In this document: one piece after another, positions 1 through 7,072 of the stretch
How the letters are laid out: the number at the start of each line of letters is the position of its first letter
Position numbering within the stretch: the stretch's first letter is position 1
Origin: Escherichia coli
Lineage (GTDB): Bacteria; Pseudomonadota; Gammaproteobacteria; Enterobacterales; Enterobacteriaceae
DNA length: 64,000 nt
Assembly: GCF_044324875.1 (NCBI RefSeq)
Contig: NZ_CP172185.1
Strand: one strand, 5' to 3'
Notes under the pieces: model-generated
What the model saw: only the letters and a program-made list of their open reading frames with translations
What the model was told of the DNA's origin: nothing
The model's database searches: none
Translations under genes and position numbers: made by a program

Positions 1-53
1 CATCATAACTCACCAAACAACCAGTCACCAGTTAAGATACATCAAAAAAAAAT

Positions 54-91
54 TACCCATGGGTATTTACTTTTTGGATACCCATGGGTAT
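54..91. repeat. Two copies of the perfect palindrome TACCCATGGGTA (54-65 and 79-90; second extends to ATACCCATGGGTAT 78-91), centres 25 bp apart, each followed by a T-run
   Basis: Read directly from sequence; dyad symmetry typical of a dimeric DNA-binding protein operator. Confidence 0.6.
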
Positions 92-283
92 ACTTTTTTT
101 CATACCAACCCACCCCGCCCCACAGAACGCAGGGCAATACTTCGAGTTACCAGGCAGTGGTCAGGGGTTAAGTAGCCAGCCCGAGGCGTATGAACATGAC
201 GGCAGGGTTTAACTTTAACTATGCAGCAGGTTTTTGTTCCGCTACCCCGGCGTTAAGGGGAAACAGCACTGAGAGAAATCAGT

Positions 284-1768: not shown

Positions 1769-3990
1769 GCTGTAATAAATAACTGACCCAATACGACATT
1801 CAGCTTAATAAATACATAAGGGTCGATTCTTATATGCCAGCAATGGCAGGGATTCGCACAACCTTAAAACAGCAATGAGGTTTATCAATGAGCACTGATA
1901 AAGAAACTTTTGCGCTATATTGCGAAGCTAAAAATGACAAAGTCAGAAAACGCCTTGGGATTAAAGGTGGTTTTTACTGGACTACAGCAAAAAAATTATC
2001 TGTTGCCATCTCCCGCTGCATTACCGCAATGGATGATAACGATTATGATGAAGACGACTTTAAAAAACCTGTTCGCGTCCATTTGCCCGTTGTTGATGAC
2101 CTTCCACCGGAAGGCGTGTTTGATACCGAATTCTGTAACCGGTATGAAAAAGGCGGCGAAGATGGCATCACAATGATATTTATCGCGCCTCCGCCATCCG
2201 CGCAGGACAAACCAGCCAGCACTGACAACACCAATGTTAATGGCGAAGACATGACTGAGATTGAGGAGAATATGCTTCTGCCGGTTTCAGGTCAGATTCT
2301 GCCTGTTCGCTGGCTGGCGCAACACGGCGGCGAAAAACCAGTAACGCACGTTTCGCGGGATGAACTGCGCTCATTACATAACGCACAGGAAGAAAAACTT
2401 CCCGCCGTTACCGCGCTGGCCATCTCAAATAAAGCAGCGCAACTCGAACCGCTGGAGATTCGGGATTTGTACAAACTGGTGCGGGACACTGACAAAGTTT
2501 TTCCCGCTCCCGTAAATTCAGACCTGGGACTGATGACCTCCTTCATCGAAGCATACCTGGACGCTGACTACACTGATCGTGGTCTGCTTACAAAAGAGTG
2601 GATGAAAGGAAATCGTGTTTCTCGCATCAGTCGCACACCATCCGGCGCTAACGCTGGCGGCGGTATTCTTACCGATCGCGGCGAAGGTTTTGTGCATGAT
2701 AATGCGTCAATGGCATTCGATGTTGCTACAGGAAAACTGGCTCGTTCGATGGATGTGGATATTTACAGCATGCATCCTTCACATACCAGACGTGTTAACG
2801 AAATTATCGCAGAAAATGATCCCTGTTTCTCCGTCTTCCTTAAGGCTTTTCTGAACATGCCAGGCGGGATGGATTATTCCCGCGCCATCGTGGTTGCCTC
2901 CGTGAAAGAAGCACCGGTTGGTATAGAGGCTATGCCCCACCGCGTCACCGAATACCTGAATAAAGTGCTGACCGAAACCGATCATGCCAACCCTGATCCG
3001 GAAATCGTGGATATTGCCTGCGGTCGTTCCTCTGCACCAATGCCGCAGCGTGTAACAGAAGAAGGAAAACAGGATGATGAAAAAAAACCGCAACCGTCTG
3101 GCGCAATGGCAGATGAACAGGCAACTACTAAAACAGTGGAACCGGATACAACTGAACATCATCCGGACACGCAGACGCTGGATGCTCGGCCGCAGGTGAA
3201 TTCTGTTGATGCGAAATATCAGAAACTGCGGGCAGAACTCCATGAAGCCCGGAAAAACATTCCGCCCCAAAATCCTGTCGACGAAGACAAATTGCTGGCA
3301 ACCTCTCGCGGAGAATTTGCTGAAGGGATTAGCGACCAGAATGATCCGAAATGGGTGAAGGGGATTGAAACCCGCGATTCTGTGAACCAGAATCAGCAAG
3401 AAACGGAACAGAACGACCAGAAAGCGGAACAAAACAGCCCAAATGTGCAACGAAAAGAGCCAAAAGCGAAACAATCCGAACCAGTAGCGCAACAGGAACC
3501 GGAAAAAGTCTGCACCGTCTGCGGTCAGAGCGGTGTCGACAACTGTCCTGATTGTGGCGTGGTGATGGGCGACGCAACATACCAGGAAATGTTCGATGAA
3601 GAGAATCAGCCTGAAGTTCAGGAAAATGATCCAGAGGAAATGGAAGGCTCTGCGCATCAGAACAAGGAGAACTCTGGCGGCAATCAGCATCATGCCAGCG
3701 ATAGTGAAACTGGCGAGACGGCAAATCCCTTAATTAAGATAACCAGTCATCACAAATATAAGTCCACAAGCAAAACGTGGTATCACCTGATGATCGACCT
3801 TGAAACAATGGGAACCAACACCAATGCACCCATAGTAGTTATTGGTGCGGTTTTCTTCGACCCGGAAACAGGGGAAATCGGGCCGGTATTTTATATCGTT
3901 ATCAGCCTGACTGACGCAATGAATACAGGGGCTGTTTGAACCGCCCCGGGAATCCTGGAGACTAAACTCCCTGAGAAAGAGGTAAACAGA

Positions 3991-4317
3991 ATGACTAAAA
4001 ATACTCGTTTTTCCCCCGAAGTCCGTCAGAGGGCGATTCGTATGGTTCTGGAAAGTCAGGGCGAATATGACTCACAGTGGGCGGCAATTTGTTCCATTGC
4101 CCCAAAGATTGGCTGTACACCGGAGACTCTGCGTGTCTGGGTACGCCAGCATGAGCGGGATACCGGAGGCGGTGATGGCGGGCTCACCACCGCTGAACGT
4201 CAGCGTCTGAAAGAGCTGGAACGTGAAAATCGTGAACTGCGCCGCAGTAACGATATCCTTCGCCAGGCTTCCGCTTATTTTGCGAAGGCGGAGTTCGACC
4301 GCCTCTGGAAAAAGTGA
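3991..4317 (+). CDS. IS629 transposase OrfA (108 aa)
   Basis: Recognised IS3-family OrfA sequence; stop overlaps orfB start in ATGA. Confidence 0.9.
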
Positions 4318-5204
4318 TGCCACTGCTGGATAAGCTGCGTAAGCTGTACGGGGTCGGACCGGTATGCAGTGAACTACATATTGCCCCGTCAACGTATTAC
4401 CACTGTCAGCAACAGCGACATCATCCGGATAAACGCAGTGCCCGTGCGCAGCGCGATGACTGGCTGAAGAAAGAGATACTGCGCGTATACGATGGGAATC
4501 ATCAGGTATACGGTGTGCGTAAAGTCTGGCGTCAGTTGTTACGGGAAGGAATCAGGGTAGCCAGATGTACAGTGGCGCGCCTCATGGCGGTTATGGGACT
4601 TGCCGGTGTTCTCCGGGGTAAAAAGGTCCGCACTACCGTCAGCCGGAAAGCCGTTGCCGCAGGCGACCGCGTAAACCGTCAGTTTGTGGCAGAACGTCCT
4701 GACCAGTTGTGGGTGGCTGATTTTACTTACGTCAGCACATGGCAGGGGGTCGTCTATGTGGCGTTCATCATTGATGTGTTTGCCGGATACATCGTGGGGT
4801 GGCGGGTCTCATCGTCTATGGAAACGACATTCGTGCTGGATGCTCTGGAGCAGGCGTTATGGGCCCGTCGACCGTCCGGCACAGTCCATCACAGTGATAA
4901 AGGTTCTCAGTATGTATCGCTGGCCTACACACAGCGGCTTAAGGAAGCCGGATTACTGGCATCAACAGGAAGTACTGGTGACTCGTATGACAACGCGATG
5001 GCGGAGAGCATCAATGGCCTTTACAAAGCGGAGGTAATACACCGTAAGAGCTGGAAAAACCGGACAGAAGTGGAGCTGGCCACACTCACGTGGGTGGACT
5101 GGTATAACAATCGACGATTGCTGGAAAGGCTGGGCCATATCCCACCGGCAGAAGCAGAAAAAGCTTATTATGCTTCCATCGGAAACGATGATCTGGCAGC
5201 CTGA
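4314..5204 (+). CDS. IS629 transposase OrfB (296 aa, DDE integrase-like catalytic domain)
   Basis: IS3-family OrfB; overlaps orfA by 4 nt. Confidence 0.9.
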
Positions 5205-5706
5205 GTTCACAGATAAAACACTCTCCAGGAAACCCGGGGCGGTTCAGTTCCTGATGGTGGCACCATCGAATGGTGGCTGAAGCAGTCCAGCGAAGCCAGA
5301 GCTGCCATTTTAACTGACCAGGTAAAAATGAAAGATGCCCTTTTGCGTTTTCGGGAATTCGTCAATGAACACTCCGATGAAAAATTCGTTCAGGTGTGGG
5401 GTAATGGCGCAACGTTCGATAACGCAATTTTGCGCACCTCATACGAACGTCTGGACATCCCCTGTCCGTGGCATTACAGCAACGATCGTGATGTACGCAC
5501 AATCGTTGAGATGGGGAAAATCACAGACTTCAATGCCAGAAGCGTAATTCCATTCGAAGGCGTGCGCCATAATGCTCTGGATGACGCTCTTCACCAGGCA
5601 AAATACGTAACAGCCGCTATACAAAAACTGATCCCGAATCAGGCTGATTTTTAATGTTCAACAGTCGCCAGTTGTCGTTGCTATTCTGCAACTGGCGCGT
5701 TCCGGA

Positions 5707-5985
5707 GTGATAGCCATGAGCGAACAGTACCTGATAACGCTCGATGAGTGGAAACCAAAACGGTTCAGTCTCCCAATAACAAACACTACCCTGGTGAAAT
5801 ATGGAAAACTAGGATACATCGTTCCAAGACCACAAAAAATTCGTGGGCGTTGGCTGATAGATCGCCGGGCAGTATTTGTTGGGCCAGGTGAAACAGGAAT
5901 TGCGCCGGAAATTCATACTGGCGATGATGATGCACTGAAGGAGATTTTAACTCATGTCACCGAGGCCACGAAAAAACAGCACTGA
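5707..5985 (+). CDS. xis: Prophage excisionase-like protein (92 aa)
   Basis: Small basic ORF directly upstream of and overlapping the integrase start by 32 nt. Confidence 0.6.
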   Translation: MIAMSEQYLITLDEWKPKRFSLPITNTTLVKYGKLGYIVPRPQKIRGRWLIDRRAVFVGPGETGIAPEIHTGDDDALKEILTHVTEATKKQH

Positions 5986-7072
5986 CGTAGCCGGTCTTTA
6001 CGAAAAGTTTGATCGCAGAACTGGCAGGGTTTACTACCAGTATAAAAACCCTGTGACTGGAAAATTTCACGGTCTCGGAACAGACAAATGTAAGGCAGAA
6101 AAAATCGCTTCCACAGCCAATCAGCGAATAGCTGCAGCAGAAGCTGAATATTACATGCGCAAAATTGATGAAAGTCCGTCAGCAACAAAACGTCGGGGTA
6201 TCAGATTAAAGGCATGGGTTGAACGATATCTGAAAATACAGGACACACGACTAAAAAATGGAGATATTGCAGCTACAACCCACAAAGAAAAAGCCCGAAT
6301 GGCTGCATACCTGGTTTCCCGTCTGGGAAACCACCCATTGAAAGAACTGGAAGTAAGAGACTTTGCATTGATACTGGATGAGTGGCTGGATAAAGACATG
6401 GTCAGCACGGCGAGAGTAAACCGTGGATTATGGGTTGATATTTATAAAGAAGCACAGCATGCAGGGGAAGTTCCTCCCGGATGGAATCCTCCGGAGGCTA
6501 CCCGTAAACCGATCCCTAAAGTAAGCAGAGCCAGACTCACCCTGGAAGACTGGCAAAAAATTTACAATGCAACGCCTGAAAGGCACTTTATTCGTAACGC
6601 AATGCTTCTTGCAATTGTTACTGGTCAGCGCCGTGATGACATTTGCCACATGCGTTTTTCAGATGTGTGGAACGAACACTTGCATATCACCCAGGGAAAA
6701 ACCGGAATGCGTCTGGCGTTACCGCTTACACTCCGCTGTGATGCCATTGGGATAACGTTAAAAGAAGTTATTGATGGATGCCGAGACAGAATATTAAGTC
6801 CATACCTAATCCATAGTCGGCACCAGAAACAACCAAAACCGATGAGTAAAGACAACCTGAGCGACTACTTTGCCAAAGCACGGGATCTGGCTGGGATAAT
6901 TCCACCAGCAGGAAAAACTCCTCCCACATTTCATGAACAACGCTCTCTATCAGAACGGCTGTACCGTACGCAGGGTATCGATACAAAAACATTACTGGGA
7001 CATAAAATCCAGGCAACCACCGATCGCTATAACGATACCCGAGGTCAGGAATGGGTTAAGTTGGTTATTTGA
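5954..7072 (+). CDS. int: Prophage tyrosine integrase (372 aa)
   Basis: C-terminal catalytic signature HxxR (HEQR) and terminal Tyr (DRYNDTR); N-terminal arm-binding-like region; lies at the prophage/host junction. Confidence 0.9.
   Translation: MSPRPRKNSTDVAGLYEKFDRRTGRVYYQYKNPVTGKFHGLGTDKCKAEKIASTANQRIAAAEAEYYMRKIDESPSATKRRGIRLKAWVERYLKIQDTRLKNGDIAATTHKEKARMAAYLVSRLGNHPLKELEVRDFALILDEWLDKDMVSTARVNRGLWVDIYKEAQHAGEVPPGWNPPEATRKPIPKVSRARLTLEDWQKIYNATPERHFIRNAMLLAIVTGQRRDDICHMRFSDVWNEHLHITQGKTGMRLALPLTLRCDAIGITLKEVIDGCRDRILSPYLIHSRHQKQPKPMSKDNLSDYFAKARDLAGIIPPAGKTPPTFHEQRSLSERLYRTQGIDTKTLLGHKIQATTDRYNDTRGQEWVKLVI

Follow-up and report, generated by a model that had tools for sequence, protein, structure and literature searches.

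Twin palindromes over a predicted early-left promoter are probable operators of an apparently uncharacterised repressor in an Escherichia coli lambdoid prophage

In the 64,000-nucleotide stretch of Escherichia coli DNA analysed here (the window), a perfect 12-bp palindrome, TACCCATGGGTA, occurs at positions 54–65 and 79–90, with centres 25 bp apart. Sequence comparisons indicate that these sites are very probably the left operators, OL2 (54–65) and OL1 (79–90), of a Qin/Rac-like lambdoid prophage and the targets of the repressor that it encodes. The sites are interleaved with a σ70-type promoter just downstream of the repressor gene, related sites recur between the repressor and cro genes of relatives, and the motif travels with the repressor's DNA-binding domain across distantly related bacteria. 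The most likely overall picture is an ordinary lambda-type switch with a different, apparently uncharacterised, specificity.

Results

Both copies are exact, as the first-pass annotation had reported, and they are the only copies in the 64 kb. Because one exact 12-mer is expected only about 0.004 times in a sequence of this length, two copies 25 bp apart are not a chance occurrence. The looser pattern TACC-N4-GGTA has no matches in the window beyond the same two sites (mean in shuffled sequence, 0.44). The order around the sites is AAAAAAAAAT, TACCCATGGGTA, TTTACTTTTTGGA, TACCCATGGGTA, TACTTTTTTTCATACC, with an A-tract at 44–52 (+ strand), variable between 4 and 9 A among relatives, just 5′ of the first palindrome. 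T-rich sequence follows both palindromes (TTTACTTTTT and TACTTTTTTT, respectively), in line with the T-runs noted earlier. A third OL site was sought in window positions 1–53 and not found. A search of the window for the LexA box CTGT-N8-ACAG also found none, and thus there is no sign of direct SOS control within it. A literature search for the 12-mer found no paper containing it.

Promoter scanning predicts a σ70 promoter on the + strand with the −35 hexamer TTTACT (66–71), a 17-bp spacer, and the −10 hexamer TATACT (89–94), together matching the consensus at 9 of 12 positions. The two palindromes, which have no assigned strand, are nested in this promoter: OL2 abuts the −35 hexamer, while OL1 takes up the spacer and runs 2 bp into the −10 hexamer, its last two bases serving as the first two of the hexamer. 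A protein on either site would therefore be expected to block RNA polymerase. In relatives, the slot directly after OL2 is occupied by TTGAC, TTTAC, or TAGAC, and the −10 register by TATCCT, TATATT, TATAGT, or TAATAT. Because ydfC, Rha, exo, xis, and int lie downstream in its reading direction, the promoter is predicted to be the early-left promoter, the equivalent of PL or dicBp, of a Qin/Rac-like lambdoid prophage. The closest relative among complete E. coli genomes (L121) is 98.6% identical over window positions 1–140. Relative to L121 (990–1000), the window carries two substitutions just past OL1, at 92 and 97, by which TATCCTTTCTTTC becomes TATACTTTTTTTC; together they yield a better −10 hexamer (TATACT in place of TATCCT) and an unbroken run of seven T. 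Among 80 near-identical loci from IMG/VR, TATACT is present in only one other and the T7 run in none.

Judged from the position of the −10 hexamer, the early-left transcript would start at 101, with a leader running to 283 (+ strand). The first ∼160 nt of this leader (101–260) are conserved at 90–95% identity in more than 4,000 of 5,426 complete E. coli genomes, alongside various immunity types, and match no Rfam family. Matches from Qin-like prophages with other immunity regions begin at window positions 94–113, which indicates that the immunity module ends at the predicted transcription start.

The window opens inside the last 8 bases of the repressor gene (CATCATAA, 1–8, + strand, stop codon TAA at 6–8), so that the upstream context is indeed cut, as the first-pass annotation had remarked; the same end is found in the repressor ORFs of the relatives L001 and L121. 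Following the 12-mer into related prophages, a step that the annotation had proposed, identifies the flanking regulator gene as one encoding a 139-aa repressor (WP_000362152.1; L001 3589–4008; L121 489–908), annotated in relatives as a hypothetical protein. The prophage in the window presumably has an intact copy, to judge from its relatives, the gene and its right operators (OR) lying outside the window. The description of the sites as standing at the prophage edge has to be corrected: the edge is that of the window only, and in related genomes the prophage extends leftward. There, to the left of the repressor and on the other strand, lie genes for a 93-aa Cro/YdaS-like regulator, for YdaT (“CII-like” in PHROG), and for O-like and P-like replication proteins. 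To the right, relatives that cover the window from its first base carry ydfA/B/C, dicB, Rha, kil, exo, xis, and int. In the window itself, a ydfC homologue (284–502, + strand), predicted to be the first gene of the operator-controlled operon, starts 194 bp past the second palindrome, close to the earlier estimate of about 190 bp. It is followed on the same strand by a Rha-family regulator (653–1501), an exonuclease gene split by an IS3-family element (1888–5654), an excisionase (5707–5985), and an integrase (5954–7072), the integrase end of the prophage lying at ∼7072. With the end of the repressor gene to the left and the ydfC-to-int operon to the right, the palindromes thus stand where OL/PL lies in lambda and dicBp in the K-12 Qin prophage.

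Several features of this operon differ from those of close relatives. The window lacks ydfA and ydfB (240–284 versus L001 4230–4590), with almost nothing separating the ydfA ribosome-binding region, GTTCCGCTACCCCGGCGTTAAGGGGAAA, from ydfC; also absent are dicF and dicB, between ydfC and Rha. The exonuclease gene, intact in relatives at ∼820 aa, is present as a 5′ part (1888–3939) and a 3′ part (5328–5654) separated by an IS3-family insertion (orfA, 3991–4317; orfB, 4314–5204), which we take to be IS629/IS1203-like; because of this split, the prophage is at least partly defective. Rfam models detect, on the + strand, an isrK Hfq-binding RNA (704–780; 62.7 bits against a gathering score of 50), a C4 antisense RNA (805–892; 78.2 bits against 45), and a weak c4 a1b1 target (691–743). 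A promoter-like site (669–697, 10 of 12 consensus positions) lies just before the isrK and C4 RNAs, and a Rha/Ant domain is encoded downstream of the RNAs, the ORF for which probably starts near 947 rather than at 653. Together, 669–892 and Rha/Ant look like a P1 immI-type cassette, in which an antirepressor is controlled by antisense RNA.

The repressor matches PHROG 5736 (phrog_5736, “transcriptional regulator”; E = 5e-70), whereas a Pfam search gave no match even at E = 10. Its residues 1–86 are 65% identical to the N terminus (86 aa) of the cI protein of phage mEp043, and its residues 84–136 resemble the C terminus of DicA (33% identity). The same segment, 84–136, is all that aligns to the NCBIfam DicA model (NF007257), against which the protein scores 24.1 bits relative to a cut-off of 101. 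The repressor lacks an S24 self-cleavage domain. The same N-terminal domain is, however, fused to an S24 (LexA-type) peptidase in CI proteins of Salmonella, Klebsiella, Pantoea, Edwardsiella, Yersinia, and others, and a PDB sequence search with the family profile matched only the S24 domain of these long relatives and left the N-terminal domain unmatched. Overall, the N-terminal domain is found joined to at least three C-terminal modules, namely the DicA-like helical hairpin and two S24 classes (∼221–235 aa and ∼242 aa), and its consensus is MDKYExRRxxLIxIRDxxCxGKAxxxARxIxREPSYVSRMLYPEGKKGKKRIADDMxExIExxFxLPRGWMD.

The AlphaFold model of the repressor (mean pLDDT 84; >90 over residues 1–70) predicts a helical N-terminal domain, a disordered linker, and a long helical hairpin. 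Its top structural match in the PDB is the Rep–Ant complex of a Salmonella temperate phage (5d50), followed by the XRE-type helix-turn-helix (HTH) proteins C.Esp1396I and HigA and the N-terminal domains of lambda cI and TP901-1 CI; with E values of about 1e-3 and upward, these weak matches speak for the fold class and nothing more specific. Neither the repressor family nor its recognition sequence appears ever to have been studied experimentally.

In relatives that cover the window from its first base, the repressor/cro intergenic region contains three related sites, TACCCACAGGTA, TACCCTTGGGTT, and TACCTTGCGGTA, and across L001 and the 80 near-identical IMG/VR loci this OR triplet reads TACCCACAGGTA, TACCC(A/T)(C/T)(A/G)GGTT, TACCTTGCGGTA. 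In these loci, the OR sites overlap divergent promoter-like hexamers; with only 6 bases between the end of the repressor promoter and the ATG, the repressor mRNA is probably leaderless, as is that of lambda cI. Three OR sites are present in every relative examined. The OL sites are conserved in all 80 close loci while their flanks vary, and their positions are also kept in diverse relatives.

The pattern extends well beyond these close loci. Phages mEp043 and CharmingMan carry TACC-N4-GGTA triplets at OR and pairs at OL. A domain-profile scan limited to one genome per species recovered 30 loci from Enterobacterales, Aeromonas, Burkholderiales, Neisseria, Nitrosomonas, and Xanthomonas, and in nearly all of them TACC-N4-GGTA, or a one-mismatch form, stands at −72/−73, −47/−48, and −32/−33 from the repressor ATG. 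The downstream pair, 25–26 bp apart in diverse relatives, always takes the form [site]-TTGAC/TTTAC/TAGAC-∼13 nt-[site]-TAnnnT. Over 32 diverse loci (111 kb, five orders), 83 exact TACC-N4-GGTA sites were observed against an expectation of 0.6–1.7, and the symmetrised consensus from these loci is tTACC-Y-R-Y-R-GGTAa. Motif and positions track the repressor DNA-binding domain even where the neighbouring genes differ. The first-pass annotation had named random frequency and a lack of positional conservation in related prophages as grounds for dismissing the motif; the relatives display the opposite. In mEp043-type relatives (L005 2950–2975, L102, L097, L088), a split site, TTACCTG-N10-CAGGTAA, with the same half-sites one helical turn further apart, lies ∼40 bp upstream of OL2. 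This element, absent from the window, might be a third operator with a different geometry.

Because the palindromes are identical, the two sites are also inverted repeats of each other, and on the + strand they form a composite hairpin (54–100) that is a candidate intrinsic terminator. The 16-bp stem (54–69/75–90; 6 G–C pairs) comprises OL2 and OL1 with their inner flanks, TTTA and TGGA, closed by the 5-nt loop CTTTT and followed by TAC and T7 (94–100). The hairpin lies 45 nt past the repressor TAA, on the coding strand, with UACUUUUUUU after the stem. Folding of the window hairpin gives −26.6 kcal/mol (z = −4.8), the upstream A-tract pairing with the U-run; the predicted hairpin energies were −26.6, −22.2, and −24.4 kcal/mol, with z-scores from −4.8 to −7.5. 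In an Rfam scan of positions 1–2000, this hairpin matched microRNA precursor models below threshold (27 bits against a gathering score of ≥58), and we set these aside as generic hairpin hits.

Discussion

Our analysis supports the suggestion of the first-pass annotation that the palindromes are a pair of operator sites recognised by a dimeric regulator: they lie beside and across a σ70 promoter just downstream of a repressor gene, related sites lie in the repressor/cro intergenic region, and the motif accompanies the DNA-binding domain across distant bacteria. The same annotation had raised a recombination or packaging site (att, cos, or pac, recognised by a recombinase or terminase), for which dyad symmetry and repetition are the sole arguments. 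This reading is highly improbable, since the excisionase and integrase genes occupy 5707–7072, with the prophage end beyond them, leaving the integrase 5.9 kb from sites that are internal to the prophage; the motif follows the DNA-binding domain of the repressor, rather than int or terminase, and recurs at OR; and the palindromes are nested in a promoter. Even more remote is the idea that the repeat is present by chance or is a selfish element, REP-like or related to restriction for example, without any part in regulation. Although the palindrome core does contain CCATGG, a common restriction target, there are only two TACCCATGGGTA copies in 64 kb, the motif is enriched 50- to 100-fold and confined to the surroundings of homologous repressor genes, and all 80 close loci keep the sites despite variable flanks.

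A different question is whether the operator pair, in addition to its role in DNA, also serves as the intrinsic terminator of the repressor transcript (a t_imm equivalent), which would stop PRM transcription from entering the toxic early-left genes. The remark that the hairpin potential is too short for a convincing terminator holds for each palindrome alone but not for the two together, which form the 16-bp stem; a terminator scan flags 54–90 plus TACTTTTTTT, and the same element in the commonest relative. Furthermore, in the E. coli lineage the stretch from the repressor stop codon to OL2 contains no further hairpin, while S24-type relatives (mEp043, CharmingMan, L097–L099, L102, L103) carry a distinct canonical terminator ahead of OL. 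Among 27 distinct E. coli-type variants, 99.1% of cells are paired, with compensatory changes at two pairs; one stem pair is GC in 12, GU in 10, AU in 5, and A–C in none, and the recurrent one-sided changes give G–U on the + strand, whereas C–A changes are singletons. In L003, L009, and L053, both operators have lost their self-palindromy and yet OL1 remains exactly the reverse complement of OL2, a persistence that selection on the hairpin would explain. Against this, near-identical palindromes always pair with each other, so that most of the stem comes free, and templated correction of quasi-palindromes could yield exact complementarity without selection. The variable inner arm (TAAA, TGGA, TGAA, or TAGA) lies in unconstrained spacer opposite the constrained −35 hexamer, and neutral A/G drift there gives U–G automatically. 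The U-run is also variable, being weak in the majority (UCCUUCUUUU) and absent from L003 (UCCUACAUUCC), and the T7 of the window is unusual. Beyond the E. coli lineage, members of the wider family do not consistently keep the central 4 bp of OL1 complementary to those of OL2, and short-type relatives from Serratia, Yersinia, and a metagenome contig carry a terminator of their own, or additional genes, behind the repressor rather than the layout in which the operators follow the stop codon. A shuffle control gave 2/500, a figure that is not a probability because the sequences are closely related. We therefore hold use as a terminator to be possible and advance it only tentatively. The more inclusive proposal, that the element is dual-purpose (operators and promoter as DNA, terminator as RNA) and that the repressor N-terminal domain is a widespread module with the recognition code tTACC-YRYR-GGTAa, is as a whole somewhat doubtful.

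Under the operator reading, the 139-aa repressor, consisting of an N-terminal HTH domain of the mEp043 cI type and a short, helical, DicA-like C terminus, would bind OL1 and OL2 as dimers and, from the way these sites abut and overlap the promoter hexamers, exclude RNA polymerase. Dimers on sites 25 bp apart would probably bind cooperatively, by analogy with lambda OL1/OL2, and the operon of ydfC, Rha, exonuclease, xis, and int would thereby be kept silent in the lysogen. The Cro-like (YdaS-type) protein probably shares the same operator sites. The TACC and GGTA blocks are 8 bp apart centre to centre, compared with the ∼10 bp typical of HTH dimers, and this shorter spacing makes the binding mode of the repressor uncertain. 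The Rha/Ant cassette may provide a route for inactivating a repressor that is not cleavable; derepression by an antirepressor, like binding, dimer stoichiometry, and cooperativity, is a part of the switch that we infer.

This type of immunity region is present in 821 of the 5,426 complete E. coli genomes, including O157:H7, O111, O55:H7, and ST131. The advance is modest: an operator motif and its promoter are identified for a prophage immunity type that is very common in E. coli but unstudied, and the motif is seen to travel with a DNA-binding domain unmatched in Pfam across several orders of Proteobacteria. The operator TACC-N4-GGTA and its promoter offer a direct handle on prophage co-immunity and a basis for reporters, and knowledge of the operator helps to explain the silencing of dicB/kil-type cell-division inhibitors. 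Because domain and motif extend to prophages of Neisseria, Burkholderia, Xanthomonas, and Aeromonas, one binding experiment would annotate many loci. Double use as operator and terminator, if true, would add a small detail to the ways in which compact phage switches prevent read-through. None of these results alters the general view of lambdoid regulation.

Among known systems, lambda offers a parallel in layout. As at lambda OL1/OL2 and PL, dyad-symmetric sites ∼24–25 bp apart lie over the early-left promoter; as at lambda OR1–3, a triplet separates divergent repressor and cro genes; and here too the repressor operon has to be separated from PL by a terminator. Lambda differs, however, in having a 17-bp core, against 12 bp here (14 bp with flanks), and three OL sites, against two here; in addition, the 139-aa repressor lacks the domain that undergoes RecA-stimulated cleavage in lambda CI, and no N/nut antitermination system is found downstream in the window's prophage.

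The region also resembles the dicA–dicC/dicBp region of Qin, in which a repressor gene is followed by operators and promoter and then by the ydfA/B/C, dicF, and dicB slot. In K-12 Qin, DicA represses dicBp 22-fold, repression is relieved by the antirepressor Rem, DicA having no cleavage site, and operators have been described at dicCp and at dicBp, the latter overlapping the promoter (PMC10448788). We find two related sites around the −35 of the K-12 dicBp region, in the same layout. The downstream leader and ydfC are homologous to those of Qin, and relatives of the window's prophage also carry ydfA, ydfB, and dicB, whereas the window is without ydfA, ydfB, dicF, and dicB. Like DicA, the repressor is short and without an S24 domain, and it shares the C-terminal region (33% identity), but its N-terminal DNA-binding domain is unrelated in sequence. 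Likewise, the operator TACCCATGGGTA bears no resemblance to the DicA operator Oc, TTGTTAGTCATAACTAACAA (PMC3441716). Because DNA-binding domain and operator both differ, the immunity specificity differs from that of Qin.

The mEp043 cI and CharmingMan CI systems share the homologous N-terminal domain, the TACC-N4-GGTA motif, and the OR/OL geometry, but they possess an S24 peptidase, a separate terminator before OL, and the extra split site. By virtue of the S24 domain, their repressors are SOS-cleavable. In a literature search, the papers mentioning mEp043 did not describe its operators. The SPC32H Rep/Ant pair (5d50, 5d4z) of a Salmonella phage and the antirepressor-controlled repressors of the Gifsy type are alike in that the former is the best match to the modelled structure and the repressor is non-cleavable, and a Rha/Ant-type gene with C4 and isrK RNAs lies nearby in the window's prophage; SPC32H Rep differs, however, in having only 16–21% sequence identity (Foldseek E ∼1e-3) and unrelated operators. 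Finally, prophage CP-933P of O157:H7 has an immunity region with PaaR2, YdaS, and YdaT and the promoters PRM, PR, and PL (PMC8630535). It shares with the present system the cro-like YdaS and cII-like YdaT partners and the lambdoid layout, and is distinguished from it by the PaaR2 repressor, GTTTAGTAA-type repeats, and a toxin–antitoxin pair after PaaR2.
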